This document shows, piece after piece, positions 15,601 through 62,967 of a stretch of DNA of 64,000 nucleotides (positions are counted from its first letter, which is position 1; the number at the start of each line of letters is the position of its first letter). Under the pieces are notes generated by a model, which was given only the letters and a program-made list of their open reading frames with translations, searched no databases and was not told the origin of the DNA. Made by a program: the position numbers and the translations under genes. Origin of the DNA: Spirochaetia bacterium (GTDB lineage Bacteria > Spirochaetota > Spirochaetia > WTKD01 > G963693115); contig OZ244590.1 of NCBI GenBank assembly GCA_965218205.1, positions 1,176,178 to 1,240,177 on the forward strand, written 5' to 3'.

Positions 15601-15639
15601 CCTATAGCAAAAAAGGAGCATTTCCTTTCTTGCTATAGG
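15601..15639. terminator. 17-bp-stem hairpin immediately 3' of the giant lipoprotein gene (no clear U-tract). Probable terminator or stabilising stem-loop, also conserved at 58251-58289
   Basis: cctatagcaaaaaagga gcatt tcctttcttgctatagg has 16/17 complementary positions. The same structure follows paralog 3. Confidence 0.55.
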
Positions 15640-15662
15640 CATGTGTCTCTTATGTACCTCTA

Positions 15663-18600
15663 TTATGAAGTACATTCTGGATCATCTCTATCCTTTGGAA
15701 ACCAATCTGTTTTTTTTGCCATAGCTGAATTTTGGAAATCACCATTCTTTACTGATATTTTACAAATTTTCCACGAGGATAAATTTTGATTAAATTCAGA
15801 AGCGTTATAAAAGACAAAATTAAATCTTGTAACATTACCTACATTCCAACCTGATATATCCTTATCAAACTTACTTGCGTCTCTAAACATAAGATCCATA
15901 TTAGTAACCTTACGCGTATCCCAATCTCCTATATCTTTATTAAAAGCACGTGCTCTATTGAACATAGAACTCATATTAGTAACTTTGCTTACATCCCAAT
16001 CTCCTATATTTTTATTAAAAGCACTTTCTTGAAATAGAGCTTGCATATTCGTTACATTACTGGTATTCCACTGTGTTATATTTCCATTAAAAGTACTATC
16101 TTGATAAAATAAAGCATTCATATCAGTAATAGCACTGGTATCTATCATGTTGAGGTTGGGGCTAGGGTTGTTGTTACCTCCTGAACCTTGTCTTGTTTTT
16201 TCTGCAGTGATAATAGCTTGCAGTGCTGCTTTTGTTGTTGGTCTGTAATAGGTAGCTGATTGTCCTGCTAGTTTTACCAGCCCTGTCTCTACATTGATAG
16301 TCGCAAGTACCTTTTGTCCCGAGTTTGCTCCCGCAGAAGTAATGGTACACTCCACTACTCCATAGCTATACTCAGTTATAGCAGTATCATGTATGTTTGA
16401 TTTATTTGCTGTGCCTGCTATCGTTACTGTATTGGTATTTTTTGCAAATGTTACTGTTAAGCCTGTTTCTTGTTTGAGTGTGCTGTTATCTACTGTGCTT
16501 TCATCACAGGTAAATGATAGTCCACTAGGACTAATGCTGGTAAGTACTCTTGTTGTATGTGCTGATGTTGGTGCTGAGCCTACTGTTGCTGAAACTTTTG
16601 TAGCATTTCCTATCACTACTACTGGAGTGCTGGCAGAGACTGCTGTTGCTTCTGCTGATACCTTTGTCTTTTTGAGGCTGTTTACTGCTACTGCGGTGAT
16701 ATAGTACTTTGTATTCAATCGTAGGTTGCGTATTGTATAGCTTGTTGCTCCTGTTGGTACATCGTCTTTTTCTGCTCCTACTTGTGCATCGCTTGCTGCT
16801 TGTGCTTGTGTTTTTACTGTTGCTCCATTTATGCTTGTATTTGAGGCTATATAGTATACTTTGTAATCTATTTGATTATCTCTGAGAGTAGTTGTTCCGT
16901 CTTCTGTTGTTCCTTTCACGGTTGGGGCTGTTATGGTAAGTACTATGGTTGCTCCTTGTGCATTTGCTTGTATGGTGGGCTTTCCTGGTGCTCCATAGGC
17001 TTCTTTTGCGATAAACTCCTTGCGGACACCTCTTGATTCTTTGTTAGGATCGGTGCTGTTTACTGCTTGCACTACTATTTCGTAGCTTGTGCCTACTGTC
17101 ACACTGGTCAGAGTGCTGTTGGTTGTTCCTGCTGCTGTTGTTGTGGGGCTTCCTCCTGCTGCTATTATTATCTCTGCTATTGTCCTCTGTGAACTACCAT
17201 TTTTTGCTACTTTGTATACTTTGTACGATACTTGTGCTACTGCTAGGGTGTCTCCTGTGTCTGTTTTGTGGCTTGCAGTAAGGCTGGGGGCTGTCCACGA
17301 TAGCGTTGCATTCCTTCCTTCTACTCCTTTTACTTGTATGTTGCTTACTTCTGCGGGATCTGTTGCTTGTGATGCGGTTGTTACTGTTGCCACTGTCGAT
17401 ACTGCTTTTTTGCTTGGGTCTGTTTTTATGGCTACTTCTACTACAAAGTGATACTTTGTCGCTCCTTTTATTGCTACTGTTGGGGATGTCACGCCTAAAC
17501 TGCTAAGCGCTGGTACTGTGTACACTCCGTTCCTTGCACTGCCTATAGTTACTTTTCTGCCTTTTTGTACTTCTGCTACTGTTGGGGTTGTGTCTTTCTG
17601 TAAGCCGTACACTGTGTATACTAGCTCATCATTGCTGGTTACTGTTGTGCCGTCTTTGTTTTTTGCTCCTGTTATTGTGCTTAATTGTGTGAGTACTAGC
17701 TTTATTGTTCCTGTTGTGTTTGTTGATTGTGATACTACCAGCTTGTTTGCTAAGGACGAGGTAGGGGCTGTTGCTTTTGATCTGGGGATGGTGCTCAGTT
17801 CTAGTGTTTGTATCAGTGCTGGGTCCTTGCTTTGTGCTTTCTTTGTTGTAGAGGGGTTCAGGCTGTTTATTGCTTCTATGCCTATGGTGTATACTGCTCC
17901 TTTTGTTCCTATAAATGTTCCTCGTAAAGTGCTACTTCCTGCTATGTCTTGTGTTTGTACTCCTGTTATTGTTTTTATTTCGGCTATTGTTTTAGTACTC
18001 TGGTCTCCTGCTACTAGGTATACTTTGTACTGTATCTGTGCTTGTGTGAGTTTGCTGTCATTGGGTGCTTTGTGGTTGTCGGTAATTGTTCCTGCTTGAA
18101 ACTCGTACTGTACGGTATCGCTTGTTGCTGTTGATTCTGCAATAAGCAGAGTGAGGGTTTCTGGTGCGGGGGGGACAGTGGATATTGCATCATATACTGC
18201 TACTTTGTCAGTGAGTGTTGTTGGGGGGCTTACTCTGTTATTTTCTACTGTGAGAAAGCTAAAGCTATATTGTTTTGCATTGGCTTGTGTTGCTGATACT
18301 TCTATGCCATCTGCTATGCCAAAGCTAATGGTGGTAGCTATTCCTGTTATGCTTTTTTCTGCTATCAGTGTAGTGCTATCGTACATACGCAGGGTGTAGT
18401 ACTTATTTGATCCAGGTGCTTGCGTAAAGGTTGCTTTTATTTGTATTGCTCCTGTTGTTGTAACGAGGGCAGGCTTGCTTTGAAAGAGTTCTGCTGAGGG
18501 GGCTGTGAGTGGGGTGGGTGTTGTTATGTCTTGTGTTTTTGCATTGCTTTTGTTTTCTGCATAGTCTATTGCTTGTATTGTTACTGTGTATGTTTTGCCT

Positions 18601-20216
18601 TGACTGAGTGCTTCGACAGAGAGCGATGTTGTGGGATAGGGTATTTTTTTCTCGTTCAGTACTGTGGTAGTTGTGCCTTTCTCTTGTATGCTTATGCTGT
18701 ATTCTTTTATGTCTTTGTTCTTTGCTTTTGTTGCATCGGGTGCTGTCCATGTTATCTGTGTTGCTACTTTTGTTGCTGATACAAAGGGATAGCTTGCTTG
18801 TATGTTTGTTACTGGATCGGGATCGGTGCTATCTGCTCCTGTATCTACTGTTGCTGTTGCTTCTGTTCCTTTGTTGCCTGCACTGTCCATTGATACGACT
18901 GCCACTGTATACTCGGTGGTAGCTTTGAGGCCTGGTATCTGTGTGTTGCGTAGTGTTCTGTCTGTTATTGTTACTGTCTTTGCTGGAGTATCGCTCTCTT
19001 TCTCTGTTGCTGTTATAGTCACTCCTGCGTAGTCTCGTACATTGGGGGCTTGCCAGATGACTACTATGCTTGTTGCTCCTCCTACGGCACTTACATTGGT
19101 CGCGGGCTTTGTTGTTTTGTCGGTTGTTGCTTGTTCTTTTGACACTGCAGTGGAGTACTTTCCGTTTTGAGAGACATACACTTCTACTTTGTACGTAAGC
19201 GTGCCGTAGAGTTTTGTGAGTGCTATGCCATCTTTTGCGACATACACAGTGGCATATTCTTTTGTCTGTGCAGTTGCACTGCTGACATTGGTTGCACTGG
19301 TATCTTTGCTTATTGTCTCCTCTGCTACTATCGTCTGTGTTGCGGTTGCTGTTACTCGTACTAAGAGGCTTTTTGCTGTGTTGCCTGTTCCAAAGGCAAA
19401 GCTCCCCCACTTGATAAGCAGGCTTTCATCGGCAGGGCTATTGCTTTTATCGTTTGCTGTTACTGTAAGATTTGCCTCTGGTAGTGCTGCTACTGTTTGT
19501 GAGAGTGCTGATGCTTTTACGCCTGTCAGTACTGTTGTAGGACTGCTTGTGTTGTCATTTCTGTCTTTGTAGCGTATTTCTACATCATAGGATATGCCTG
19601 CAAGCGTAGAGATGTTTGGAAGCACAACCTCTCCTTGCTGTAGATTCTGCACGGTAGCTTGTGCAAGCACTGTGCCATCATTAGCCGTGCTTTTTACCAC
19701 TATTGTTGCTTCTGCTATGTCTGTCTTGCCTACTGCTAGTCGCTCTTTGTCCCATGTTATCTTTATGCCATCCCCCGACTTTTCTACTCCTACCTGTGTC
19801 AATGTGTCCTGTGGGGTAGTAGTATCTATCAGTGTTGTCACGGTGCGGGTTGTTTTTGGTGATACTTCTGTGTCCTTTTGGGCTTCAATCTCTACAGTGT
19901 AGTTAGTGAGTGCTTGCAAGCCTTTGAGTTTGTACGATTGTCCTTGTTGAAAGAGTGTTTGATATTCTATGGCAGGAACACGCACTTGTATTGATTGGGC
20001 TGGTGCGGTAGAGGTAGCGTTTACGACTACATGCGTGGCATCGCTTGGGGCTTGCCAGCGTAAAGCAAGCGTCCCATCATTGCCTGCTGGCTGTATCTGC
20101 ACATTGGACAGTGATGCAAGGGTCGGGGTTACCTGTTTCCCTCCCCCTCCGCCTGATGAGGAACTGCTACTGCCCTCCGAACATGCTACGAGTACGAGGG
20201 TAGTTATTGCTAGCAC
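15663..20216 (-). CDS. Giant surface lipoprotein, paralog 1. Multiple FN3/Ig-like repeats plus C-terminal DUF285 (BspA/mycoplasma-type) repeats. Body as called from GTG 20216; the true initiation is probably the ATG at 20314, currently out of frame (see the poly-G feature)
   Basis: 1517 aa. Lipobox LVAC, then a Ser/Gly linker. Repeated FN3-like endings (YTVTIQAIDYAENKS, EYTVAVVSMDSAGNKG). The C-terminal tandem motif ...MFxxAxxFNxDIGxWDVSxVTNM is typical of DUF285. The called GTG start leaves only 11 residues before the lipobox Cys, with no charged n-region. Confidence 0.85.
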   Translation of the reverse strand: MLAITTLVLVACSEGSSSSSSGGGGGKQVTPTLASLSNVQIQPAGNDGTLALRWQAPSDATHVVVNATSTAPAQSIQVRVPAIEYQTLFQQGQSYKLKGLQALTNYTVEIEAQKDTEVSPKTTRTVTTLIDTTTPQDTLTQVGVEKSGDGIKITWDKERLAVGKTDIAEATIVVKSTANDGTVLAQATVQNLQQGEVVLPNISTLAGISYDVEIRYKDRNDNTSSPTTVLTGVKASALSQTVAALPEANLTVTANDKSNSPADESLLIKWGSFAFGTGNTAKSLLVRVTATATQTIVAEETISKDTSATNVSSATAQTKEYATVYVAKDGIALTKLYGTLTYKVEVYVSQNGKYSTAVSKEQATTDKTTKPATNVSAVGGATSIVVIWQAPNVRDYAGVTITATEKESDTPAKTVTITDRTLRNTQIPGLKATTEYTVAVVSMDSAGNKGTEATATVDTGADSTDPDPVTNIQASYPFVSATKVATQITWTAPDATKAKNKDIKEYSISIQEKGTTTTVLNEKKIPYPTTSLSVEALSQGKTYTVTIQAIDYAENKSNAKTQDITTPTPLTAPSAELFQSKPALVTTTGAIQIKATFTQAPGSNKYYTLRMYDSTTLIAEKSITGIATTISFGIADGIEVSATQANAKQYSFSFLTVENNRVSPPTTLTDKVAVYDAISTVPPAPETLTLLIAESTATSDTVQYEFQAGTITDNHKAPNDSKLTQAQIQYKVYLVAGDQSTKTIAEIKTITGVQTQDIAGSSTLRGTFIGTKGAVYTIGIEAINSLNPSTTKKAQSKDPALIQTLELSTIPRSKATAPTSSLANKLVVSQSTNTTGTIKLVLTQLSTITGAKNKDGTTVTSNDELVYTVYGLQKDTTPTVAEVQKGRKVTIGSARNGVYTVPALSSLGVTSPTVAIKGATKYHFVVEVAIKTDPSKKAVSTVATVTTASQATDPAEVSNIQVKGVEGRNATLSWTAPSLTASHKTDTGDTLAVAQVSYKVYKVAKNGSSQRTIAEIIIAAGGSPTTTAAGTTNSTLTSVTVGTSYEIVVQAVNSTDPNKESRGVRKEFIAKEAYGAPGKPTIQANAQGATIVLTITAPTVKGTTEDGTTTLRDNQIDYKVYYIASNTSINGATVKTQAQAASDAQVGAEKDDVPTGATSYTIRNLRLNTKYYITAVAVNSLKKTKVSAEATAVSASTPVVVIGNATKVSATVGSAPTSAHTTRVLTSISPSGLSFTCDESTVDNSTLKQETGLTVTFAKNTNTVTIAGTANKSNIHDTAITEYSYGVVECTITSAGANSGQKVLATINVETGLVKLAGQSATYYRPTTKAALQAIITAEKTRQGSGGNNNPSPNLNMIDTSAITDMNALFYQDSTFNGNITQWNTSNVTNMQALFQESAFNKNIGDWDVSKVTNMSSMFNRARAFNKDIGDWDTRKVTNMDLMFRDASKFDKDISGWNVGNVTRFNFVFYNASEFNQNLSSWKICKISVKNGDFQNSAMAKKTDWFPKDRDDPECTS

Positions 20217-20290
20217 TAAAAACAGTGCAACGAGAGTTATGCTTTGCTTATATCGAGAGTGTACCCCCCCCCCCCCCCGATTTTTTTCAC
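16100..20290. repeat. Large direct repeat copy 1 (~4.2 kb, near-identical to 58760-62940)
   Basis: Block-by-block comparison of the two lipoprotein genes and their 5' ends. They diverge 3' of ~16100/58760 (DUF285 cassette) and 5' of the G tracts. Confidence 0.85.
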
Positions 20291-20314
20291 GCTTTGTAGA
20301 TCTCTATGTATCAT
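20237..20314 (-). other. Signal-peptide leader ORF of lipoprotein paralog 1 (ATG with AAGGAGG SD). It reads through a 15-nt G tract and terminates out of frame in the present sequence
   Basis: SD cctcct is at 20321-20326 (minus AGGAGG). ATG is at 20314..20312. The peptide MIHRDLQSVKKIGGGGG then goes +2 out of frame. With 16 or 13 G it continues VHSRYKQSITLVALFLVLAITTLVLVAC|SEG, a canonical lipoprotein signal peptide. Confidence 0.7.
20264..20278. repeat. Homopolymeric tract, C15 on the + strand (G15 on the coding strand) inside the lipoprotein signal-peptide coding region. Candidate slipped-strand phase-variation switch
   Basis: Counted directly: gta + 15 c + gattttttt. Confidence 0.9.
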
Positions 20315-20351
20315 AAAGGCCTCCTTATGTTATTTAGTATCATATATGAAT

Positions 20352-20361
20352 ATTATAGCAA
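20352..20361 (-). promoter_or_regulatory. Extended -10 promoter element TGcTATAAT for lipoprotein paralog 1
   Basis: The minus strand reads ttgctataat at 20361..20352, ~38 nt upstream of the leader ATG. The same TTGCTATAAT recurs upstream of paralog 3 (~63036-63045). Confidence 0.5.
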
Positions 20362-20412
20362 ATAATAGTATTTTATATATCTATAAAGCAAATAGCATGC
20401 ATCTCTATATTA

Positions 20413-23400
20413 CTATGATTTACATTCTTTACTATTTATGTCTTTTGGGTACTGTGTTGTTTTTCCTGCCATAGCTGAATTTGAGAAATCATAACTGCTA
20501 AGAAATACCTTACACAATCTCCATGATGATAAATCTTGATCAAATGCAGAGGCTTTCTCAAACGCAACAGCAAAACTATTAACATTCCTTACATTCCAAT
20601 TTCCTATGTCTTGATCAAAGATATTTGCTCTATTAAACATTGCAAACATATCCCTTACATTACTCACATTCCAATTTCCTATATCTTGATTAAAGGCACT
20701 TGCTCTCGTAAACATTGAAAACATACTCCTTACATTACTGGTATTCCACTGTGTTATATCTCCATTAAAGGTACTATCGTTATCAAATAAATTACTCATA
20801 TCAGTGATAGCACTGGTATCTATCATGTTGAGATTGGGACTATTGGTGTTTTGCCTCCTTGCTCCTCTTTCTGCACTGATAATAGCTTTAAGCTGCTTCT
20901 TTGTCGTTGGTCTGTAATAAGTAGGTGATGTCTCTCCTGATGGTGCTGCTTTTAGTCCTGTCTTTATGATAATGCTTGCTGGTACTCTTTTATTTGAAGC
21001 GGTAATTGTACACTGTACTACATCATAGCTATAGTTAGTAATAGCAAGATCATGCACATTAGATTTATTTGCTATGCCTGATATAGTAATTGTTTTACTA
21101 CTCTGTTCAAACTGTAGTGCTAAGCCTGTTTCTTCTTTAATTTTCTTGCTATCTCCTTCCCGTATATTAGCATCACAGGTAAATGCAACGCCACTGGGAC
21201 TGCTTACTAATCTTCTTGTACTATGTGCTGATCTTGGGGCTTTACCTACTTCTGCTGAAACCTCCATAGTGTTTCCTATAATCACTGCTGACATTTCAAA
21301 CTCATGTCGTTCTCCTGTTGATGTTTTTGTCGTATCGGTGCTGTTTACTGCTTGTACAACTATTTCGTAGGTTGTTCCGTTTATCAAGCCTGTCAGGGTA
21401 GTGTTGGTTGTTCCTGCTCCTACTGTTGTGGGGCTTGAGTCTGCTTGTTTTATCGCTGTCGCACTTCTTGCACTGCCACTCTTGGCAATACTGTATACCT
21501 TGTACGATACTTGTGCAGTAATTAAGGCATCCCCTGTATCTGCTTTGTGATTTGCACTGAGGCTAGGAGCTGTCCATGATACTCTCATGCCTATTGGGGT
21601 TGTTCTTGTTTGTATGTTTCTTACTTCTGCTGGAGCAGTCGCTAGCGATACGGTTATTATGCTTGCCACTGATGAAGATGCTACTTTCTTGCTAAGATCT
21701 GCTTTTATTGCTACCTCCAATACAAAGTGATACTTTGTCGCTCCTTTTATTGCTATCACTGGTGCAGTGTCTGAAGATAAGCCTAAACTCATCAAGGCTG
21801 GTACTGTGTACACTCCGCTACTTGCACTGCCTATGTTTACTTTTCTTCCTGCAAGCACTTCTGCTACTGTTGGTATTGTGTCTTTCTGTAAGCCGTACAC
21901 GGTGTACACAAGCTGTGCATCTGCTGTTATATCTTTGCCATCGTAGTCTTTTGCTCCCGTAAATGTGCTTAGCTGGGTGAGCCTCAGGTTTATTTTCCCT
22001 GCTGTGCTTGATTGTGACAGTACCAGCTTTCCTGTAAGCAATGATCTATTGGGTGCTACTGCCTTTGAAGTATAGACTTCCTTTATTTCCGTTATATCGG
22101 TGTAAAAGCCTGCAGGAAAGAGCCTGTCGCTATTTGATGCATCGTAATCGGGGGATGTTGTGTTTACTATCCTCACTCCTATATAGTAATCTTTTGCTGT
22201 TTCTATGGGTGTTGCTCCTGCATTGCTTCCACTGGTACTGTCTACTATTGGTATCTGTACAGTCGCTTGATTTGTCATTCCTGTTGCTTTTGTGTATTTT
22301 GCTACTCTCACTGCTACCTTTGAATGGCTTTTTTCTACTGCCCATAGGGCTGATACACTGTCAGGCTTTCCAGTGCTGTCTTCTTTCTTGAGATATAGCA
22401 CATAGTACGCAAGATCAGTTGCTTCAAGAGGAGTACCATCTGCTTTACGCATTCCTGCTATGGCTGAGGCATTTACCTGTACTGTTATGACTTTTTTTCC
22501 TGTATTGCCTCCTGTGCTAGGCACTGAAAATACTACTGCATTATTGCTAGTATATGTTGTTATTTTTGGTGTTGTTGGTGGAGGAGTGAGTGCTTTTGTT
22601 ATTATTGTTCCTGATGCTCCTATGCTATAGGCGGGACTGAGGCTGTTTATAGCTTCCACTCCTACAGTATAGGTTGCATCTCTTTTTCCTATAAATGATA
22701 CGCTGTACCTTGTAGTATTCTTTCCTGCTAGCTCCCGTATTTGTTTCTGTGTTTCTACTCCTGCAAGAGTTTTTATTACATCTATTGTTTTTGTGCTGTG
22801 ATCTCCTTCTGCTATGTACACTTTGTACTGTATCTGTGCCTGTGTAAGTTTGCTTCCATTAGGAGCTTTGTTGTCAGTAGTAATGTCGCCTGCACTAAAC
22901 TCATAGACTGCTGTTGCTGTTGTTTGTGTTGCTGACACTACAGAGAGCTTTGCATCCTTGGGAGCAGGTGGTGCAGTTGAAGTATCATCATATACTGCCA
23001 CTGTATCAGCAAGAGAGGTTATGAATCTTACTATATTATTTTCTATTTGCAGAAAGATAAAGCGATAGTCCTTCTTTGTTGCTTCTGTCTTGGGTACTTC
23101 TAAACCATCTGCTATACCAAAGCTAATGGTGGTATCTGTTCCTGTTATGCTCTTGTCTGCTATTGAGTTTTTGCTATAGCTAACAGTAGTGTCTGTTCCT
23201 GCTATGCTCTTGTCTGCTATTAAGTTTTTGCTATCGTACATAAGCAGGGTATAATATCGTCCTACGCCAGGAGCTGTCTTAAAGGTTGCTTTTATTTGTA
23301 CTGCTCCTGTTTTGTCTAAGCTAGGTTTATTTTGAAATATATCTTCTGATGGGACTGTAGGTTTAGGAGGGGGGTTTAAGGGAGGCTTAGGAGTCTGTAT

Positions 23401-23514
23401 ATCTGTGGTAGTTACTGTTTCTGTACATCCTAGCACAAAAAGCGTAGCCACTACTAGCATCCATGCCAGCGTAACTGTAATTATTCTTTGTAAAATCAAG
23501 GTGCACCTCCTCAA
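20413..23514 (-). CDS. Giant surface lipoprotein, paralog 2. It lacks the first ~570 aa of paralog 1, has no G tract, and carries its own C-terminal DUF285 cassette
   Basis: 1033 aa. Lipobox FVLGC. Colinear with paralog 1 from ...QNKPSLDKTGAVQIKATF onward. The ORF-track start is TTG at 23514. A second TTG at 23499 sits 6 nt after GAGGAGG and is the likelier start (MILQRIITVTLAWMLVVATLFVLGC). An in-frame TGA lies 3 codons upstream. Confidence 0.8.
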   Translation of the reverse strand: MRRCTLILQRIITVTLAWMLVVATLFVLGCTETVTTTDIQTPKPPLNPPPKPTVPSEDIFQNKPSLDKTGAVQIKATFKTAPGVGRYYTLLMYDSKNLIADKSIAGTDTTVSYSKNSIADKSITGTDTTISFGIADGLEVPKTEATKKDYRFIFLQIENNIVRFITSLADTVAVYDDTSTAPPAPKDAKLSVVSATQTTATAVYEFSAGDITTDNKAPNGSKLTQAQIQYKVYIAEGDHSTKTIDVIKTLAGVETQKQIRELAGKNTTRYSVSFIGKRDATYTVGVEAINSLSPAYSIGASGTIITKALTPPPTTPKITTYTSNNAVVFSVPSTGGNTGKKVITVQVNASAIAGMRKADGTPLEATDLAYYVLYLKKEDSTGKPDSVSALWAVEKSHSKVAVRVAKYTKATGMTNQATVQIPIVDSTSGSNAGATPIETAKDYYIGVRIVNTTSPDYDASNSDRLFPAGFYTDITEIKEVYTSKAVAPNRSLLTGKLVLSQSSTAGKINLRLTQLSTFTGAKDYDGKDITADAQLVYTVYGLQKDTIPTVAEVLAGRKVNIGSASSGVYTVPALMSLGLSSDTAPVIAIKGATKYHFVLEVAIKADLSKKVASSSVASIITVSLATAPAEVRNIQTRTTPIGMRVSWTAPSLSANHKADTGDALITAQVSYKVYSIAKSGSARSATAIKQADSSPTTVGAGTTNTTLTGLINGTTYEIVVQAVNSTDTTKTSTGERHEFEMSAVIIGNTMEVSAEVGKAPRSAHSTRRLVSSPSGVAFTCDANIREGDSKKIKEETGLALQFEQSSKTITISGIANKSNVHDLAITNYSYDVVQCTITASNKRVPASIIIKTGLKAAPSGETSPTYYRPTTKKQLKAIISAERGARRQNTNSPNLNMIDTSAITDMSNLFDNDSTFNGDITQWNTSNVRSMFSMFTRASAFNQDIGNWNVSNVRDMFAMFNRANIFDQDIGNWNVRNVNSFAVAFEKASAFDQDLSSWRLCKVFLSSYDFSNSAMAGKTTQYPKDINSKECKS
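23132..23245. repeat. 57-bp x2 tandem duplication inside paralog 2. It encodes a repeated 19-aa unit (…ADKSIAGTDTTVSYSKNS / …ADKSITGTDTTISFGIAD) that is single-copy in paralogs 1 and 3
   Basis: Unit 23132-23188 against 23189-23245, ~90% identical. Confidence 0.7.
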
Positions 23515-23608
23515 TTTTTTTCACGCTTTGTAGCTATTTTGTTTGTAGCTACTATTTGTAAAATATACTCCTCACTCCTTATTACATTATTTATTATAGC
23601 ATAAAAAA

Positions 23609-24586: not shown

Positions 24587-24651
24587 ACCCTAAATATTGC
24601 AATGTGATAATACATATGGTATATTATCACACAATTAACTAAATGTTGCTG

Positions 24652-44295: not shown

Positions 44296-44353
44296 ATTTC
44301 CTCTTACTTTTATATTCTTATTGTATACAAACTTCTATCACATACACCTACCA

Positions 44354-45229
44354 CTACTGTACTAATGTGAATCTCTGTTGTATCAATTTTTTCTTTACGG
44401 AGAAGCAATTCATTATTCCCTTAAAAAGAATATAATGCTTCTTTGGACGCACCTTTTTTTCATATACTAAAAATGGATTTTTATAGATTCTCTGTGCTAT
44501 GTAATGATATCCTTGTACAGCAGTAACAATAGGAATAAGCATACGCTTTGGTAAATAATGCAATCCTTTTTGTGCTTTTTGTAACCAAGCTGCATATATA
44601 TCCAAGTTTTTTCGAATAAATTGCTCAAACATATGAGGATGTGACATAGCTTCTTGCTTGCTTAAGTTTTGAAATGTATAATCTCCTATTGGAATATACT
44701 GCCTATTTTTACTATAATCTTCTCCTATATCACGAATAAAATTAACATACTGCATACAAGAACCAAGCAAAGCAGCATACTCTTTTGCTTCATCAGAAAT
44801 ATGGCAAATATGACACAAAGTAAGTCCAATAATATCAGCACTTCCATACATATATTTTTTACAGTCTTCCATAGTAGTGATAATATATATTTCCTGTAAA
44901 TCGGCTTCCATTGCACACCAAAAAGCATCGAAATACTCTATTGGTATAGACTCTTGTTCAATAAGCGTACATATTCTCTCTATAATCACTGGTGCTGATA
45001 TAGACACTCTTTTTACTCGATCATAAAATGCTTTTTTTAAAAAAAAGAACGCCTCAGCTTGTTTGGGTTGTAAATCAACAAAATTATCAACAATACGCAC
45101 AAAGCTATAAAAAATCATGACTTTATCGTATATTTCTTTAGAAAAAAAGAGTGACGACTTAGAATAAGTAGTACTTCCTTTTGAAAAAATAGCCTCAAAG
45201 ATATTTTTTTCTAATTTTTTCGTTCTCAT
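44354..45229 (-). CDS. Squalene/phytoene synthase family protein (CrtB/CrtM/HpnD-like)
   Basis: FYSFVRIVDNFVD (first substrate-binding motif, Asp partly replaced). YVNFIRDIGEDYSKNRQYIP matches the second conserved motif of the family. Confidence 0.75.
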   Translation of the reverse strand: MRTKKLEKNIFEAIFSKGSTTYSKSSLFFSKEIYDKVMIFYSFVRIVDNFVDLQPKQAEAFFFLKKAFYDRVKRVSISAPVIIERICTLIEQESIPIEYFDAFWCAMEADLQEIYIITTMEDCKKYMYGSADIIGLTLCHICHISDEAKEYAALLGSCMQYVNFIRDIGEDYSKNRQYIPIGDYTFQNLSKQEAMSHPHMFEQFIRKNLDIYAAWLQKAQKGLHYLPKRMLIPIVTAVQGYHYIAQRIYKNPFLVYEKKVRPKKHYILFKGIMNCFSVKKKLIQQRFTLVQ

Positions 45230-47674: not shown

Positions 47675-50158
47675 TTATAGCTTAAATGTTAAGTATAGTG
47701 AAAATTCAAGATATTTCGTAAAACTATTAGCATCAATGTTATATGTATATTCTCTTCCATCAATATCTTTATCTGATGCTCCTTCTGTCTTATCATCTTT
47801 TATATCTCTCTTAAATGTTAAGAAAGCAAGCAAATTACCTAAGGCAAAACGATAGTTAAAGGTGAGAAATTTATTATCCACAAACACCCCTGTAAAAGAA
47901 GGCACTAAGGTCATCACGGGAATGTACTCTCTTGCTGAATTAATTTCTCTTTCTTGCCTGATGAGATTTCCTTTATCATCTTTTACTACTTCGTTAGGAG
48001 TAAATGGTTTGTCTATTGCAAAAGAACTAGACAGTGCAAAAGTAAACACTTCATGGGGGCTTACTGAGTATTTCATTCCAATAGTATGACGTGTATCATC
48101 ATTAGATGGTAACCACTCATTGTCTTTTGTATAGAAATAAGAAAATCCTAGTGTATAGGAAAGCTCAAATGTTTGAATATTTTTACTATACTTCCAACGA
48201 GTGGTTGCTCCAGTACCATAGCCATAATTTACAGGCTTATATGCGTAGTTTCGAGTAGCATCTGTATCTCTATATCTAAACTGACTAAATATTCCATGAA
48301 AATTATAGTACCAGCCAAAATACGGAGTAAGCGATAACTGATGATTTCCAAGTTCAATAAGGTATTTTGTAGAGGCCATAATGCCATAATTAGGATCTGT
48401 ATACGATGTTTTGCTGTCTGTATACTCTACTGTTTTTTCTAACACCTTTCTGTCTATGTACTGCAATTTTTCTAAAAAAGCAGGACTCCATCCTAATGAA
48501 AAAGAAATAGTGTGTATATCAGAAAAAGTGGTAGCATACTCACTTCGAAGCGAAGGATACAAAGAGCTAGCTGATTGAGCAACCCATGATACGCCTGGAC
48601 TTATAGAAAATTTAACATCTCCCCTATCAAAATAATCTTCATAGTCATATTGACCGTATAGATATAATCGTAAATAATCTTCGTTTATTGTAATGTTTTT
48701 ATCTTGATTTTCTTTATTTGTAGGACTACTTACATTAGCATATGTATAAGTATCTCCATAGCTAGCATCTAGGACAGAATACTCAACACTAGAGCCTGCA
48801 CTCACTATATGCTTATCAGTTAATGCCCATGAAAAAGAATCATTCAACGCAGAGTACCATACTTTTGATGTTCCATCATAATCGTAGCCAATAGTTCCCT
48901 TCGTCTCTCCTCTTTCTTTTAAGCGTTTTATAGCATCATCTGAGAGTTTTTTTAATGTATATTGCGAATTTAATGAGACTACAGAATAGTATGAAATAAT
49001 ATCTATAACATGTAAACCTCTATCTGCAACTACTTTTCGCCATTGCACTCCTCCTCCAAAAAAGTAGGGAAAATCTTGCTTTTCTCCTTCAAACGGATTG
49101 TCTTGCGAAGTATTTTTTACATCCAGCTGTACTATATCATAGTAGGCAAGCCCCAGTACTTTTACTACATCATTTTGATTTTTATAGGTAAAAGACAAGA
49201 AATAATCCCCATATGTATACCAATCAACATTTATGTCACTATCATCAGTAGCTAACACTTCAATAAGTGGAATTAGAGTATACCTCTCAATAGATTGCCG
49301 TGCTATCGCAAATAATGTTGCATTCTTTCCTATTGTCTGCCTATACCCAATATAAGGGGCAGTGGCACTCAACCCTAACATGAGACGATTATTCTGTACA
49401 TCCTTAGGATATGCAATTACTGTTCCTCCAAGTGATTGTCCATACCTTCCAGGAGGAGGTCCCTTGATGGTCTTAATAGATCCCACCGTTTCCTTAGAGA
49501 TAATAGGCTGGCTACTATTAGAATAATGTGCATTAGTCGGAACAGGCAAAAAATCAACATAGTTCTGATTCCATGCACTGTCTCCTCCAAACACAGAATA
49601 ACTTGTTCCTAATGTAAAAAATGAATTTGTACCAGGCTCTAGGATTCTCGCCATAGAAGCATTTCCTATATCATCTTGCATCACTCCTGCTTCAGAGGTA
49701 ATAATACTAAAAGGGTCACCTCGTTCAAGGGAGGCATTTTCTACCTCAGATTCCCCGTATTCTGTAATGTTTGGCTCTTGTTGTATATCTCTGTCTGCAG
49801 TAACTATTATCTCCTCTTCTACTAACTCAGCCTGTGAAGATTGCTCCACTACAATCTCAAATACTGTTGGATTAGCACTGGTATCTTGTCCTGCATTAAC
49901 ACTAAAAGAAAAATCAGCTTCATCAGCAGCAAGAGTGATAACTTTAAGCGTATATTCACCTGGCTCTACATCAAAAAAAGCAAAATTACCCTCTTCATCA
50001 CTTAGTTCAATGATGTCTAACTCAACGAGTATGACTGTTGCCTCAACAACAGGTTCATCATTTTGTATAATACTCCCATAATAATCTTCAGAAAATACAG
50101 TAATGCTTCCTACTATTAATAAGAAACATACAAACATGCTTAATTTCTTATATACCAT
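47675..50158 (-). CDS. TonB-dependent outer-membrane receptor with N-terminal carboxypeptidase-regulatory-like domain
   Basis: 827 aa. Signal peptide. The beta-sandwich-like N-terminal domain (VEATVILVELDIIELSDEEGNFAFFDVEPGEYTLKV) is followed by a TonB-box/plug start EEEIIVTADRD. Long Tyr/Gly-rich beta-barrel region. Divergent from the exbB-exbD-tonB cluster. Confidence 0.65.
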   Translation of the reverse strand: MVYKKLSMFVCFLLIVGSITVFSEDYYGSIIQNDEPVVEATVILVELDIIELSDEEGNFAFFDVEPGEYTLKVITLAADEADFSFSVNAGQDTSANPTVFEIVVEQSSQAELVEEEIIVTADRDIQQEPNITEYGESEVENASLERGDPFSIITSEAGVMQDDIGNASMARILEPGTNSFFTLGTSYSVFGGDSAWNQNYVDFLPVPTNAHYSNSSQPIISKETVGSIKTIKGPPPGRYGQSLGGTVIAYPKDVQNNRLMLGLSATAPYIGYRQTIGKNATLFAIARQSIERYTLIPLIEVLATDDSDINVDWYTYGDYFLSFTYKNQNDVVKVLGLAYYDIVQLDVKNTSQDNPFEGEKQDFPYFFGGGVQWRKVVADRGLHVIDIISYYSVVSLNSQYTLKKLSDDAIKRLKERGETKGTIGYDYDGTSKVWYSALNDSFSWALTDKHIVSAGSSVEYSVLDASYGDTYTYANVSSPTNKENQDKNITINEDYLRLYLYGQYDYEDYFDRGDVKFSISPGVSWVAQSASSLYPSLRSEYATTFSDIHTISFSLGWSPAFLEKLQYIDRKVLEKTVEYTDSKTSYTDPNYGIMASTKYLIELGNHQLSLTPYFGWYYNFHGIFSQFRYRDTDATRNYAYKPVNYGYGTGATTRWKYSKNIQTFELSYTLGFSYFYTKDNEWLPSNDDTRHTIGMKYSVSPHEVFTFALSSSFAIDKPFTPNEVVKDDKGNLIRQEREINSAREYIPVMTLVPSFTGVFVDNKFLTFNYRFALGNLLAFLTFKRDIKDDKTEGASDKDIDGREYTYNIDANSFTKYLEFSLYLTFKL

Positions 50159-53598: not shown

Positions 53599-53619
53599 TA
53601 CTTATATGGAGAAGGCATC

Positions 53620-54039: not shown

Positions 54040-54047
54040 CGATAATA

Positions 54048-55671: not shown

Positions 55672-55673
55672 AA

Positions 55674-57269: not shown

Positions 57270-57358
57270 AATGATAAAGGCTTCTTTTATTATAATAGCT
57301 TATCTCATTTTTTGCAAAAGCATTTCATGGGTAAACTATATACAATAGTACAGTATAC

Positions 57359-58051: not shown

Positions 58052-58250
58052 TATATCCCCCTAGTTTAATAATCATATTAAACTTATTATAATATTATTG
58101 TATTTTTTTTAACACTCTGTGTCAATATTTTTATTACAATAGTACAATCTATTTTGATATTAAGTGTAGTAATGAGATTCATAATTTTCTATTTATCGCT
58201 CTATTTAATGTGCTGTTGTATATAATTCCCTCCTTATTGATACTTGATGC

Positions 58251-58289
58251 CCTATAGCAAGAAAGGAGCATTTCCTTTCTTGCCTAAGC
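58251..58289. terminator. Conserved hairpin 3' of lipoprotein paralog 3 (homolog of 15601-15639)
   Basis: cctatagcaagaaagga gcatt tcctttcttgcctaagc. Confidence 0.5.
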
Positions 58290-58313
58290 TTGTATTTTAT
58301 GACAGAATGTATG

Positions 58314-61300
58314 CTATGATGAAGGACATGCTGTTTTATCAGTACTGTCCTTTGGGTACTGTGATGTTTTTCCATACATAGCTGAACCAGAAAAAGTACT
58401 TAAAATTATTGTTGCTTTACATAATCTCCACGATGATAAATCTTGATCAAATTTACGAGCATTTTTAAATGTATGGTATACATTAGTAACACTCTGTACA
58501 TCCCAATCTCCTATGTCTTGATTAAAAGCAGAAGCTCTATTGAACATACTATTCATACCAATAACCTTACTCATATCCCAATCTCCTATATCTTGATTAA
58601 AAGCAGAAGCTAAAGTAAACATATTAACCACATTAGTAACCTTACCTACATCCCAATTTCCTATATCTTGATTAAAGACAGTAGCAGAATCAAACATAGC
58701 ACCCATATCCGTTACATTACTGGTATTCCATTTTGTAATATCTCCATTAAATGTACTATCATTAAAAAATAAATCACTCATATCAGTAATAGCACTGGTG
58801 TCTATCATGTTGAGGTTGGGGCTAGGGTTGTTGTTCCCTCCCGAACCTTGCCTTGTTTTTTCTGCAGTGATAATAGCTTGCAATGCTGACTTTGTTGTTG
58901 GTCTGTAATAGCTCGCTGATTGTCCTGCTAGTTTCACCAGCCCTGTCTCTACATTGATAGTCGCAAGTACCTTTTGTCCCGAGTTTGCTCCCGCAGTAAT
59001 GGTACATTCCACTACTCCATAGCTATATTCAGTTATAGCAGTATCATGTATGTTTGATTTATTTGCTGTGCCTGTTATCGTTACTGTATTGGTATTTTTT
59101 GCAAATGTTACTGTTAGGCCTGTTTCTTGTTTGAGGGTGCTGTTATCGTTATCTATTGTGCTTTCATCACAGGTAAAGGTAAGCCCACTAGGACTAATGC
59201 TGGTAAGTACTCTCGTTGTATGTGCTGATGTTGGTGTTGATCCTACTGTTGCTGAAACCTTTGTGGCATTTCCTATTACTACTGTTGGGGTGCTGGCAGA
59301 GACTGCTGTTGCTTCTGCTGATATTTTTGTCTTTTTGAGGCTGTTTACTGCTACTGCGGTGATATAGTACTTTGTATTCAATCGTAGGTTGCGTATTGTA
59401 TAGCTTGTTGCTCCTGTTGGCACATCGTCTTTTTCTGCTCCTACTTGTGCATCGCTTGCTGCTTGTGCCCGTGTTTTTATTGTTGCTCCATTTATGTTTG
59501 TATTTGAGGCTATATAGTATACTTTGTAGTCTATTTGATTATCTCTGAGATGAGTTGTTCCGTCTTCTGCTGTTCCTTTTACGGTTGGGGCTGTTATGGT
59601 AAGTACTATGGTAGCTCCTTGTGCATTTGCTTGTATGGTGGGCTTTCCTGGTGCTGCATAGGCTTCTTTTGCTACAAACTCCTTGCGGATACCTGTTGAT
59701 TCTTTGTTGGGATCGGTGCTGTTTACTGCTTGCACTACTATTTCGTAGCTTGTGCCTACTGTCACACTGGTCAGAGTGCTGTTGGTTGTTCCTGCTGCTG
59801 TTGTTGTGGGGCTTCCTCCTGATGCTATTATTATCTCTGCTATTGTCCTCTGTGTACTGCCACTTTTTGCTACTTTGTATACTTTGTACGATACTTGTGC
59901 TACTGCTAGGGTATCGCCTGTGTCTGTTGTGTGGCTTGCAGTAAGGCTGGGGGCTGTCCACGATAGCTTTGCATTCCTTCCTTCTACTCCTTTTACTTGT
60001 ATGTTGCTTACTTCTGCGGGATCTGTTGCTAGTGATGCGGTTGTTACTGTTGCCACTGTCGATACTGCTTTTTTGCTTGGATCTGTTTTTATGGCTACTT
60101 CTACTACAAAGTGATACTTTGTTGCTCCTTTTATTGCTACTGCTGAGGATGTCACGCCTATACTGCTAAGGGCTGGTACTGTGTACACTCCGTTCCTTGC
60201 TGTGCCTATGCTTACTCTTCTGCCTCTTTGTACTTCTGCTACTGTTGGGGTTGTGTCTTTTTGTAAGCCGTACACTGTGTACACTAGCTCATCATTGCTG
60301 GTTACTGTTGTGCCATCTTTGTTTTTTGCTCCTGTTATTGTGCTTAATTGCGTGAGTACTAGCTTTATTGTTCCTGTTGTGTTTGTTGACTGTGATACTA
60401 CTAGCTTGCCTGTTAAGGACGAGTTAGGGGCTGTTGCTTTTGATCTGGGGATGGTGCTGAGTGCTAGTGTTTGTATCAGTGCGGGGTCTTTGCTTTGTGC
60501 TTTCTTTGTTGTAAAGGGGTTCAGGTTGTTTATTGCTTCTATGCCTATGGTGTATTCTGCTCCTTTTGTTCCTATAAATGTTCCTCGTAAAGTGCTGTTT
60601 CCTGCTATATCTTGTATTTGTACTCCTGTCATTGCTTTTATTTCTGCTATTGTTTTAGTACTCTGGTCTCCTGCTACTATGTATACTTTGTACTGTATGT
60701 TTGCTTGTGTGAGTTTGCTGTCATTGGGTGCTTTGTGGTTGTCGGTAATTGTTCCTGCTTGAAACTCGTACTGTACGGTATCGCTTGTTGCTGTTGATTC
60801 TGCAATAAGCAGAGTGAGGCTTTCTGGTGCGGGAGGGACAGTGGATATTGCATCGTATACTGCTACTTTGTCTGTGAGTGTTGTTGGGGGGCTTACTCTG
60901 TTATTTTCTACTGTGAGAAAGCGAAAGCTATATTGTTTTGCATTTGCTTGTGTTGCTGATACTTCTATGCCATCTGCTATGCCAAAGCTAATGGTGGTTG
61001 CGGTACTTGTTATGCTTTTTTCTGCTACCAGTGTAGTGCTATCGTACATACGCAGGGTGTAGTACTTATTTGATCCAGGTGCTTGCGTAAAGGTTGCTTT
61101 TATTTGTATTGCTCCTGTTGTAACGAGGGCGGGCTTGCTTTGAAAGAGTTCTGCTGAGGGTGCTGTAAGCTGAGAGGGAGTGGTTATGTCTTTTGGGGTT
61201 GATGTGCTTTTGTTGCCTGCATAGTCTATTGCTTGTATTGTTACTGTGTATGTTTTTCCTTGACTGAGTTCTTCGACAGAGAGCGATGTTGTGGGATAGG

Positions 61301-62873
61301 CTATTTTCTGCTCGTTCAGTACTGCAGTACTTGTGCCTTGCTCTTGTATGCTTATGCTGTATTCTTTTATGTCTTTGTTCTTGGCTTTTGTTGCATCGGG
61401 GGCTGTCCATGTTATCTGTGTTGCTACTTTTGTTGCTGATACAAAGGGATAGCTTGCTTGTATGTTTGTTACTGGATCGGGTGCTGTGCTATCTGCTCCT
61501 GTATCTACTGTGGTTGTTGCTTCTGTTCCTTTGTTGCCTGCATAGTCCATTGATACGACTGCCACTGTGTACTCGGTGGTGGCTTTGAGGCCTGGTATCT
61601 GCGTGTTGCGTACTGTTCTGTCTGTTATTGTTACTGTCTTTGCTGCTGTTGGGCTATCTTTTTCTGTTGCTGTTATGGTCACTCCTGCGTAGTCTCGTAC
61701 ATTGGGCTCTTGCCAGCTTACTACTATGCTTGTTGCTCCTCCTACGGCACTTACATTGCTTACGGGCTTTGTTGTTTTGTCGGTTGTTGCTAATTCTTTT
61801 GACACTGCAGTGGAGTACTTTCCGTTTTGAGAGACATACACTTCTACTTTGTAGCTAAGTGTACCGTAGAGTTTTGTGAGTGCTATGCCATCTTTTGCGA
61901 CATACACAGTGGCGTATTCTTTGTTTTGTGCGGTTGCTCCGCTGACATTGGTTGCACTTGTATCTTTGCTTATTGTCTCCTCTGCTACTACTGTGTTTGT
62001 TGCGGTTGCTGTTACTCGTACTAAGAGGCTTTTTGCTGTACTGCCTGTTCCAAAGGTAAAGTTTCCCCACTTGATAAGCAGGCTTTCATCGGCAGGGCTA
62101 TTGTCTTTATCGTTTGCTGTTACTGTAAGTTCTGCCTCTGGTAGTGGCGTTACTGTTTGTGAGAGTGCTGATGCTTGCACACCAGTCAGTACTGTTGTAG
62201 GACTGCTTGTGTTGTCATTTCTGTCTTTGTAGCGTATTTCTACATCATAGGATATGCCTGCAAGCGTGGAGATGTTTGGAAGCGTAACTTCCCCTTGTTG
62301 TAGGTTCTGTACGGTAGCTTGTGCAAGCACTGTGCCACCAGTTGTGCTTTTTACCACTATCGTTGCTTCTGCTATGTCTGTCTTGCCTACTGCAAGTCGT
62401 TCTTTGTCCCATGTTATCTTTATGCCATCACCTGATTTTTCTACGCCTACTTGTGTCAATGTGTCTTGTGGGGTAGTAGTATCTATCAGTGTTGTCACAG
62501 TGCGGGTTGTTTTTGGTGATACTTCCGTGTTTTTCTGGGCTTCTATCTCTACAGTGTAGTTAGTAAGTGCTTGTAAGCCTTTGAGTTTATACGATTGTCC
62601 TTGTTGAAACAATGCACGATATTCTATGGCAGGAACACGCACTTGTATTGATTGGGCTGGCGTTGTAGATGTAGCTTTTACTACTACATGTGTGGCATCA
62701 CTGGGAGCTTGCCAGCGTAATGAGAGTGTCCCATCATTGCCTGCTGGTTGTATCTGCACATTGGACAGTGATGCAAGTGTCGGGGTTACTGGTGAAGTTC
62801 CTCCTCCGCCTGATGAGGAACTGCTACTGCCCTCCGAACATCCTACGAGTACGAGGGTAACTATTGCTAGCAC
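58314..62873 (-). CDS. Giant surface lipoprotein, paralog 3 (near-identical to paralog 1 over ~4.2 kb, with a different C-terminal DUF285 cassette). Body as called from GTG 62873. The probable true start ATG 62967 is out of frame across a G14 tract
   Basis: 1519 aa. Lipobox LVGC. FN3-like repeats identical in order to paralog 1. The C-terminus carries one more DUF285 unit and a distinct tail (...KDSTDKTACPSS). Confidence 0.85.
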   Translation of the reverse strand: MLAIVTLVLVGCSEGSSSSSSGGGGTSPVTPTLASLSNVQIQPAGNDGTLSLRWQAPSDATHVVVKATSTTPAQSIQVRVPAIEYRALFQQGQSYKLKGLQALTNYTVEIEAQKNTEVSPKTTRTVTTLIDTTTPQDTLTQVGVEKSGDGIKITWDKERLAVGKTDIAEATIVVKSTTGGTVLAQATVQNLQQGEVTLPNISTLAGISYDVEIRYKDRNDNTSSPTTVLTGVQASALSQTVTPLPEAELTVTANDKDNSPADESLLIKWGNFTFGTGSTAKSLLVRVTATATNTVVAEETISKDTSATNVSGATAQNKEYATVYVAKDGIALTKLYGTLSYKVEVYVSQNGKYSTAVSKELATTDKTTKPVSNVSAVGGATSIVVSWQEPNVRDYAGVTITATEKDSPTAAKTVTITDRTVRNTQIPGLKATTEYTVAVVSMDYAGNKGTEATTTVDTGADSTAPDPVTNIQASYPFVSATKVATQITWTAPDATKAKNKDIKEYSISIQEQGTSTAVLNEQKIAYPTTSLSVEELSQGKTYTVTIQAIDYAGNKSTSTPKDITTPSQLTAPSAELFQSKPALVTTGAIQIKATFTQAPGSNKYYTLRMYDSTTLVAEKSITSTATTISFGIADGIEVSATQANAKQYSFRFLTVENNRVSPPTTLTDKVAVYDAISTVPPAPESLTLLIAESTATSDTVQYEFQAGTITDNHKAPNDSKLTQANIQYKVYIVAGDQSTKTIAEIKAMTGVQIQDIAGNSTLRGTFIGTKGAEYTIGIEAINNLNPFTTKKAQSKDPALIQTLALSTIPRSKATAPNSSLTGKLVVSQSTNTTGTIKLVLTQLSTITGAKNKDGTTVTSNDELVYTVYGLQKDTTPTVAEVQRGRRVSIGTARNGVYTVPALSSIGVTSSAVAIKGATKYHFVVEVAIKTDPSKKAVSTVATVTTASLATDPAEVSNIQVKGVEGRNAKLSWTAPSLTASHTTDTGDTLAVAQVSYKVYKVAKSGSTQRTIAEIIIASGGSPTTTAAGTTNSTLTSVTVGTSYEIVVQAVNSTDPNKESTGIRKEFVAKEAYAAPGKPTIQANAQGATIVLTITAPTVKGTAEDGTTHLRDNQIDYKVYYIASNTNINGATIKTRAQAASDAQVGAEKDDVPTGATSYTIRNLRLNTKYYITAVAVNSLKKTKISAEATAVSASTPTVVIGNATKVSATVGSTPTSAHTTRVLTSISPSGLTFTCDESTIDNDNSTLKQETGLTVTFAKNTNTVTITGTANKSNIHDTAITEYSYGVVECTITAGANSGQKVLATINVETGLVKLAGQSASYYRPTTKSALQAIITAEKTRQGSGGNNNPSPNLNMIDTSAITDMSDLFFNDSTFNGDITKWNTSNVTDMGAMFDSATVFNQDIGNWDVGKVTNVVNMFTLASAFNQDIGDWDMSKVIGMNSMFNRASAFNQDIGDWDVQSVTNVYHTFKNARKFDQDLSSWRLCKATIILSTFSGSAMYGKTSQYPKDSTDKTACPSS

Positions 62874-62940
62874 TAAAAACAGTGCAACGAGAGTTATGCT
62901 TTGCTTATATCGAGAGTGTACCCCCCCCCCCCCCGATTTT
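58760..62940. repeat. Large direct repeat copy 2 (~4.2 kb)
   Basis: See copy 1. Confidence 0.85.
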
Positions 62941-62967
62941 TTTGATGCTACTTATTCTTTCGTCCAT
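62905..62967 (-). other. Signal-peptide leader ORF of paralog 3 (SD aaaggaga, ATG 62967). Out of frame after a G14 tract
   Basis: MDERISSIKKIGGGG then out of frame. With 13 or 16 G it reads on as ...VHSRYKQSITLVALFLVLAIVTLVLVGC|SEG. Confidence 0.7.
62921..62934. repeat. Homopolymeric tract C14 (+ strand), G14 on the coding strand, inside the paralog 3 signal-peptide region
   Basis: Counted directly: gagtgta + 14 c + gattttttt. Confidence 0.9.

Follow-up and report, generated by a model that had tools for sequence, protein, structure and literature searches.

What kind of variation system is formed by three giant paralogous open reading frames (ORFs) on the minus strand of a Spirochaetia bacterium chromosome, two of which are long direct repeats of each other that become unlike near their 3' ends? 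The ORFs lie in a stretch of 64,000 nt (assembly GCA_965218205.1, contig OZ244590.1, positions 1,176,178 to 1,240,177), hereafter called the window, to which all coordinates refer. An earlier reading of the same DNA, made from the letters alone (the sequence-only reading), had seen in them a constant body with exchangeable adhesin-like ends. On the evidence presented here we consider it probable that they belong to a lineage-specific contingency-gene family of dispersed, complete genes for giant lipoproteins, in which most long members carry a poly-G switch in their leader. The three ORFs, found at the positions claimed earlier, are the following.

15663..20314, minus strand: p1, long paralog; leader from ATG 20314, main ORF 15663-20216 of 1517 codons
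20413..23524, minus strand: p2, short paralog (~1035 aa); ORF 20413-23514 of 1033 codons, in tandem with and upstream of p1
58314..62967, minus strand: p3, long paralog; leader from ATG 62967, main ORF 58314-62873 of 1519 codons

In each of the three, several Pfam fn3 matches (five in p1) are combined with a C-terminal DUF285 domain (PF03382), which scores 182, 119 and 184 bits in p1, p2 and p3, respectively, at a Pfam cut-off of 25; the same Pfam scan gave no evidence for the BspA repeat (PF13306) in these proteins. The layout runs from a leader with a lipobox, through a stalk of ~1,200 residues with fibronectin-III domains and an adapter consisting of a beta-sandwich and a helix, to a DUF285 tip of the leucine-rich repeat (LRR) type. 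The short paralog p2 is without the N-terminal ~500 aa.

The sequence-only reading had spoken of a family of three, which proved far too small. A search with p1 in 5.8 billion proteins returned 72 matches, 66 of which (P0001-P0066, with p1 identical to P0002 and p3 to P0006) form a close family, 51-100% identical, confined to two assemblies: the window's contig of 2,360,799 bp and the metagenome-assembled genome (MAG) CBDDCA01, labelled 'Spirochaetia bacterium'. A 37% identical relative (P0067) is also attributed to this MAG, and the remaining five matches comprise P0068 (37% identical) and four proteins that have only the DUF285 part in common. The window's genome contains at least 35 long members, together 164.4 kb or 7.0% of the chromosome, a count that is a minimum because short members of the p2 type are not retrieved by the p1 search. 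For the adapter module that precedes the tip, 8 relatives were found among 1.84 billion representative proteins, and in literature searches no description of this lipoprotein family was found. The closest named relatives of the V-type ATPase (V-ATPase) subunit A (Spirochaeta thermophila, Marispirochaeta) are only 69-70% identical, which points to an undescribed deep lineage of the Spirochaetia.

One MAG locus (L015) is the syntenic counterpart of the p2-p1 locus, with TrpB 98%, V-ATPase subunit I 97.6% and an FlcA-like protein 96% identical, and with flanking DNA that is 94-99% identical per 250 nt (96-97% overall). We infer from these sequences that the two genomes are strains of one species, which would explain why the MAG alone appears in a one-genome-per-species collection; the second strain has about 34 members at 15 or more loci.

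The feature that suggests switching is a homopolymer in the leader of the long genes.

20264..20278, minus strand: p1 poly-G tract of 15 G, after the start codon and ahead of the signal peptide's hydrophobic core
62921..62934, minus strand: p3 poly-G tract of 14 G, between the start codon and the signal-peptide core; in frame with 13 or 16 G

Only these two runs of at least 9 G occur in the window, where none would be expected by chance, and they lie 36 nt (p1) and 33 nt (p3) downstream of an ATG preceded by AAGGAG(G). When the leaders were translated in silico with tract lengths from 9 to 19, the ATG joined the 4.5-kb ORF only at 10, 13, 16 and 19 G, and all other lengths led to an early stop; at the consensus lengths both main ORFs are out of frame with their own start codon, and translation ends after 25 codons in p1 and after 20 codons in p3. 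As at contingency loci, a homopolymer of at least ~8 nt thus lies in the 5' coding region and its length decides, in silico, between a full-length protein and a peptide of 20-25 aa. The ON/OFF switches that had been suggested for p1 and p3 are supported by this frame analysis, and both genes read as OFF in the assembly consensus. In the ON frame, the leader becomes M...KKIGGGG(G)VHSRYKQSITLVALFLVLAI(T/V)TLVLV(A/G)C followed by SEG, with a positively charged n-region, a hydrophobic core and a lipobox Cys; in-frame leaders end with KKIGGGGGVHSRYKQNITLVALFLVLAIVTLVLVGC ahead of SEG, these lipoprotein features having been read by eye. The leader of p3 starts with MDERISS... and matches that of the in-frame paralogs P0005 and P0011. 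The internal GTG from which the ORF finder and the public gene calls start is situated inside the signal peptide and has no Shine-Dalgarno site.

The same frame logic extends to the paralogs, among which tract lengths are 11-16 nt. Besides p1 and p3, the frame analysis covered the eight family genes of the fetched second-strain loci that possess a poly-G tract of 11-16 nt at the same leader position (lengths 11, 14, 14, 15, 15, 15, 15 and 16). Judged by the called N-termini of the 35 members in the window's genome, seven read through the Gly run (ON; MxxxKKIGGGGGVHSRYKQN...LVGC), 21 have an internal start (OFF-like) and seven are of another kind, namely four with a complete leader without a tract, one with a decayed tract and two that are apparently 5'-truncated (P0029 and P0032). 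For annotation this means that, owing to the tract, the start assigned to 21 of the 35 family genes is a false internal one.

Out-of-frame genes with long homopolymers may also simply be decaying or mis-assembled ones, in which the G tracts are frameshift lesions or homopolymer errors and the copies are pseudogenes or constitutive. The consensus has 21 of 35 copies out of frame, homopolymers of 14-16 nt are error-prone and two copies look truncated, all of which would fit this explanation. However, the tract occupies the same leader position across paralogs and in both strains; both wrong frames terminate at once, whereas the right frame leads into the canonical leader; the OFF genes retain stop-free ORFs of 4.5 kb (~1,500 intact codons) under purifying selection, with a ratio of nonsynonymous to synonymous divergence (dN/dS, omega) of 0.22-0.27 (0.27 for the p1/p3 body); and a related poly-G leader is found on a different LRR protein, P0068. 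Decay or error is in our view quite improbable, and the leader tract is more readily understood as a switch.

Several further observations concern the leaders. The Gly-run poly-G leader is also present on other giant proteins, P0068 and P0001 (MSEIQEPVRNIGGGGGGRPQYK...; MGGGGGRPHYIH...; P0001 from the window's genome), and one giant protein with such a leader has BspA-type LRR, Kelch and FN3 domains, so that the switch may be a portable module beyond the DUF285-tipped family. A tract-less leader of the second strain reads MKKSNEKLNYQLNGKLN...LVGC (P0021, P0033, P0046, P0049 and others). At the second-strain locus L009 (14511-19158), an in-frame 16-G family gene ends after 527 codons and is followed by a family ORF of 1009 aa; the two are either parts of one long gene, split or frameshifted, or a short gene beside a fragment.

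Each of the three genes in the window is preceded by its own candidate expression signals.

20318..20360, minus strand: p1 expression signals, comprising the extended -10-like element TGCTATAAT (20352-20360) and an AAGGAGG Shine-Dalgarno site (20320-20326)
23593..23601, minus strand: -10-like element TGCTATAAT upstream of p2
63040..63048, minus strand: -10-like element TGCTATAAT upstream of p3

Three of the four occurrences of TGCTATAAT in the window are these, and the p1 Shine-Dalgarno site ends 5 nt ahead of ATG 20314; the function of both p1 elements is presumed from consensus only. A generic promoter and terminator scan of the window performed no better than on shuffled sequences, and Rfam and tRNA scans of the window gave no matches.

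A G tract as in the long genes is not present on p2. Its tract has decayed to GAGGAGGTG, the homologous position reading TTGAGGAGGTGCACC, and GTG 23524 is followed by a frame-breaking A7 run (23515-23521) that leads to a stop after 45 codons. With A6, an ORF for a lipoprotein of 1036 aa would result, and the other strain indeed has ATG and A6, in frame (L015, about 6720-6740); this A6/A7 difference may reflect a second kind of switch, of the poly-A type, or no more than a frameshift. The ON/OFF state of p2 is uncertain because the in-frame TTG codons 23514 and 23499, the latter behind GAGGAGG, are possible alternative starts. The GAGGAGG of the decayed G tract now resembles a Shine-Dalgarno site for TTG 23499.

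Where the long genes differ from each other was addressed with p1 and p3, for which the following features are needed.

16119..16151, minus strand: p1 junction, the NMIDTSAITDM codons at the start of the first DUF285/LRR repeat, nearly invariant in ~70 paralogs
15666..16118, minus strand: p1 hypervariable tip: what remains of repeat 1, then four further DUF285 repeats of 25 aa and a C-terminal cap that contains Cys
58317..58778, minus strand: p3 hypervariable tip, five repeats and the cap
15601..15639, minus strand: p1 3' hairpin with a 17-bp stem (dG -25 kcal/mol), a putative terminator or stabiliser common to p3
58251..58288, minus strand: p3 3' hairpin (dG -19.5 kcal/mol)

The two genes are long direct repeats ~42.66 kb apart, in agreement with the sequence-only reading, but its description of them as almost base-identical goes too far, since the copies are 7% divergent, with ~286 mismatches in the body and a longest perfect run of 118 nt. 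In a global alignment, the identity per 100 nt is 84-99% over the first ~4.2 kb and 59-81% over the last ~450 nt. A maximum-likelihood change-point at ~16043 separates 93.3% identity over 4274 nt from 67.2% over 381 nt, a contrast reached in 0 of 200 permutations, and the sharp boundary that had been noticed is therefore real. Mismatches accumulate straight after the ITDM codons at 16119, and the drop follows ~75 nt past them. The proposal that p1 and p3 carry swapped cassettes finds no support: each tip is built of five 25-aa repeats and the substitutions between the two are scattered, and the boundary more likely marks where stalk homogenisation ends than where a swapped module begins. The 3' hairpin is conserved between p1 and p3 as claimed; its exact loop motif was not found in the 15 loci of the second strain, so that the hairpin is not family-wide at the sequence level. 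An assembly artefact was excluded, given the divergence of the copies, their unlike flanks and the recurrence of the p2-p1 order in an independent assembly, at the locus syntenic to it. The long repeats had also been thought able to mediate deletion of the intervening 42 kb; this interval carries cysS, the V-ATPase operon, mutS2, rsgA, pdxST and ilvBN, and a deletion that removes such housekeeping genes is unlikely to be a viable variant.

The same partition is seen throughout the family and supports the idea of a constant body with a variable, adhesin-like tip. Among 17 close paralogs in the window's genome, the mean identity is 91% for the stalk (84-94%) compared to 58% for the tip after ...ITDM (50-86%), and the two are uncorrelated (r = -0.11). 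The p1/p3 stalk has a synonymous divergence (dS) of 0.151, a nonsynonymous divergence (dN) of 0.040 and an omega of 0.27, and the tip has a dS of 0.436, a dN of 0.399 and an omega of 0.92; for 28 MAG pairs the median omega is 0.22 for the stalk and 0.53 for the tip. For 33 of 36 members the stalk has its best match within its own genome (typically 93% identity vs 85%), but the tip does so for 17 of 36 only. Three tips illustrate the latter: that of P0041 is 63% identical to its best match in its own genome vs 85% across strains, that of p3 (P0006) 64% vs 79% (closest P0030) and that of P0014 62% vs 76%. Along the stalk, the closest paralog switches every 30-60 residues, often at 97-100% identity. 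A PHI-type test on 504 informative sites gave 0.400 vs 0.420 +/- 0.003 in permuted data, with 0 of 500 permutations as low, and 42-61% of site pairs failed the four-gamete test. Taken together, the mosaic stalks, the PHI result and the same-genome matches argue for frequent short-tract gene conversion in the stalks, absent or counter-selected in the tips, of which no pair exceeds 88% identity among ~70 genes of the two strains, and hence no sign of recent tip transfer is seen. The broader notion that surface variation is combined with recombination among the copies is in this way supported, with the correction that recombination, demonstrable for the stalks at the sequence level, halts inside the first LRR repeat, and that the tips are older, private and stable lineages.

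The earlier model can be cast as one of programmed cassette exchange, in which DUF285 tips would be moved between genes by gene conversion guided by the junction and the 3' end with its hairpin, as in vlsE, pilE and msp2. The variable tip is indeed flanked on both sides by conserved sequence (junction motif and 3' hairpin), the threefold higher dS of the tip compared to the body indicates separate histories of the two, tip relatedness is uncoupled from body relatedness, and P0002, P0003 and P0004 have tips of one type, 78-86% identical. Yet the hallmarks of such systems are missing: no promoterless silent cassettes or other silent or partial DUF285 cassettes occur in the window (the rest of the genome was seen as called proteins only), and no identical tip segments, nor any other trace of a recent copy, are found among ~70 genes. 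Every copy in the window is instead complete and separately equipped with its own TGCTATAAT, Shine-Dalgarno site, leader and stop. Between the strains, the tip of p2 (91% identical) has diverged no more than its body (~89%), no recombinase is nearby, and the junction is the first LRR repeat, conserved as a protein scaffold, several stalk segments being more conserved at the DNA level. The junction motif was accordingly rejected as a unique DNA-level recombination signal (pairwise identity 0.91, stalk segments up to 0.97). We hold tip exchange to be unlikely, and conversion that is confined to the stalks explains the boundary better. An invertase model was likewise rejected, as no recombinase is found among the neighbouring genes; an invertible promoter or shufflon of the Mycoplasma vsa/vpma type would be expected to have an adjacent tyrosine or serine recombinase and inverted repeats around a promoter or gene, and no recombinase was found in the window.

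The tip itself is made of 25-residue repeats, five in p1, five in p3, four in p2 and about 2-6 family-wide according to a crude parse, after which the Cys-containing cap follows. The nearly invariant junction SPNLNMIDTSAITDM is the start of the first repeat, its IDTSAITDM aligning with W[DN]VSxVTxM. In 156 internal repeats, W1, V6, M9, M12, F13, A16, F19, N20, Q21, I23 and G24 are essentially invariant, and positions 8, 10, 11, 14, 15, 17, 18 and 25 are hypervariable, with an entropy of 2.1-3.6 bits. The predicted model has an LRR-like fold, so that the tip is modelled as an LRR-type solenoid with an invariant scaffold and eight hypervariable positions. This would give the widespread, functionally obscure DUF285 a clear structural reading, that of a stalk-tip LRR solenoid with defined hypervariable positions.

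Variation concentrated at defined repeat positions, together with a tip dN/dS near 1, could also stem from targeted hypermutation by a diversity-generating retroelement (DGR) or a similar system instead of ancient divergence, and DGRs exist in treponemes. Against this, no reverse transcriptase domain, recombinase or mobile element was found among the window ORFs scanned, and the window holds no extra tip-like sequence that could be a template repeat. Moreover, the synonymous divergence of the tips is high too, and besides the conserved tip of p2 several tips have counterparts of 75-85% identity in the other strain, a conservation that makes the tips stable lineages. Hypermutation is for these reasons highly improbable, and old divergence of stable tips is retained.

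The comparison of the two strains adds the dimension of time. Between flanks of 96-97% identity, the gene in the p1 slot is a mosaic in which identity ranges from 60-88%, indels are large, the tip is a different one and the protein is 55% identical overall. This implies a far faster turnover of the long tract-bearing genes than of the genome, one that p2, which has no tract, does not share. The two strains thereby constitute a natural experiment in which gene conversion homogenises one part of a gene and spares another.

These findings can be joined into the following mechanism. Slipped-strand mispairing at replication would alter the length of the poly-G of 11-16 nt in most long genes. Only a length of n = 1 mod 3 (13 or 16 G) would read ...KKIGGGG(G)VHSRYKQ... 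into the lipoprotein, the other frames stopping within ~10 codons, so that each gene would be an independent stochastic ON/OFF switch and the population would display changing subsets of the repertoire. Specificity or antigenicity would reside in the LRR tip, where 8 of 25 repeat positions are hypervariable on an invariant scaffold. Frequent short-tract gene conversion would keep the stalks alike within a genome, and mosaic, and its end at the first LRR repeat would give rise to the sharp p1/p3 boundary; tips outside the converted region would persist as old, distinct lineages. To judge from the sequences, tract lengths presumably vary within populations, the proteins are probably surface-exposed and the tips may bind host or environmental ligands.

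A number of points weigh against this mechanism. The sole syntenic tract pair (p1 and L015) has the same length, 15 G, in both strains. Homopolymer lengths in the assembly may be miscalled, so that any single ON/OFF call is uncertain. Not every family member is switchable, as 22 of the 34 second-strain members have other leaders, mostly complete and tract-less; the two strains hence differ in the switchable share of their repertoire. Lipoprotein status was assigned from a lipobox judged by eye, and the high background of four-gamete failure could partly reflect recurrent mutation instead of conversion.

If the switching is real, a 2.36-Mb uncultured spirochaete devotes 7% of its genome to a single stochastic surface-display system, an outlay suggestive of life with a host and of strong diversifying pressure. 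Going further, we tentatively put forward, as a possibility more doubtful than the contingency family itself, that the family is the principal organ of host interaction and immune evasion of a probably host-associated lineage, with a germline-encoded repertoire of ~35 stalked LRR 'receptors', combinatorial display through independent poly-G switches, conversion actively confined to the stalk by a boundary in LRR repeat 1, and tips that are thereby kept private. If true, this would be a bacterial counterpart of the constant-region/variable-region organisation, which is not described for spirochaetes.

The surrounding genes are ordinary chromosomal ones (trpBA, the V-ATPase operon, mutS2, rsgA, pdxST, ilvBN, exbBD-tonB, cysS, clpA and tRNA synthetases), the named neighbours of the family genes being trpBA, the V-ATPase operon, a ClpP-like protein, cysS and a HAD hydrolase. 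The family genes differ in composition, being GC-richer (41-45% at 16000-20000 and 60000-62000, vs 32-36% in the surroundings) and having a very strong excess of A over T on the coding strand (AT skew -0.44 on the plus strand); the long antisense ORFs at 17518-18099 and 60181-60762 are probably by-products of this composition. Elsewhere in the window lies a restriction-modification pair of the HindIII type, with an N6/N4 methylase (8810-9616) and a HindIII-family endonuclease (9618-10535). The methylase region is 99.3% identical between the strains, above the flanks, and ~265 nt (9640-9904) inside the endonuclease gene are missing from the other strain (L015, about 20399-21228). An ORF of 827 aa on the minus strand (47675-50158) has no Pfam or NCBIfam match at the thresholds used. 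A polyprenyl synthetase gene adjoins squalene/phytoene synthase genes at 43102-45229 (minus strand), which suggests isoprenoid lipid synthesis of the carotenoid or squalene type in this spirochaete.

Among known systems, the characterised poly-G tracts of Treponema pallidum (tpr subfamilies, tprL) act on transcription from promoter regions, whereas the tract of the family described here lies inside the coding leader and would act on translation; the Tpr proteins are, moreover, beta-barrel candidates. TpLRR resembles the tip in fold only (12% identity). From BspA-type LRR proteins (Tannerella BspA, Bacteroides BACOVA_04585) the family differs by its 35-gene expansion and by poly-G switching, not seen in the BspA-type matches examined.

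Closest in the tip domain are the DUF285 lipoproteins of mycoplasmas, in which 25-aa tandem repeats follow a conserved motif (bioRxiv 10.1101/2023.03.21.533155). The Drp family of Mycoplasma agalactiae comprises 12-13 scattered lipoprotein genes per strain and M. feriruminatoris has about 27 (PMC2824730; bioRxiv 10.1101/2023.03.21.533155). In these families (M. agalactiae Drp, the M. mycoides cluster and M. feriruminatoris) the repertoire differs from strain to strain and one member is toggled by an A6/A7 frameshift in a poly-A run (PMC2824730; bioRxiv 10.1101/2023.03.21.533155), although phase variation of the drp family was considered unlikely by its authors (PMC2824730). The spirochaete genes share the PF03382 tip with these lipoproteins, the junction SPNLNMIDTSAITDM corresponds to the conserved motif ahead of the mycoplasma repeats and the strain difference of p2 is of the same A6/A7 type. 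Unlike them, they belong to another phylum and add a systematic poly-G leader switch, an FN3 stalk of ~1,200 aa and the adapter.

In organisation, the nearest parallel is the opa system of Neisseria. The opa genes are dispersed and have their tract in the leader-peptide coding region; in the Opa proteins, which are small beta-barrel outer-membrane proteins, hypervariable regions on a conserved framework determine receptor specificity, and recombination takes place among the loci. A strain has about 11 complete opa genes, in each of which the reading frame depends on the length of a (CTTCT)n repeat (PMC5320596). Many complete genes with a repeat tract as frame switch are thus common to both systems, but the spirochaete tract is a homopolymer instead of a pentamer, the family is three times larger, its genes are ~4.6 kb long and its proteins, to which the Opa proteins have no relation in sequence or fold, vary in an LRR solenoid carried by a long FN3 stalk. 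By this analogy, the best-supported reading is that the family would work like the opa genes. It is, as such, a new family of a known kind of system and not conceptually new, noteworthy for its 7% share of a small genome, its partition into stalk and tip and its unexplored lineage.

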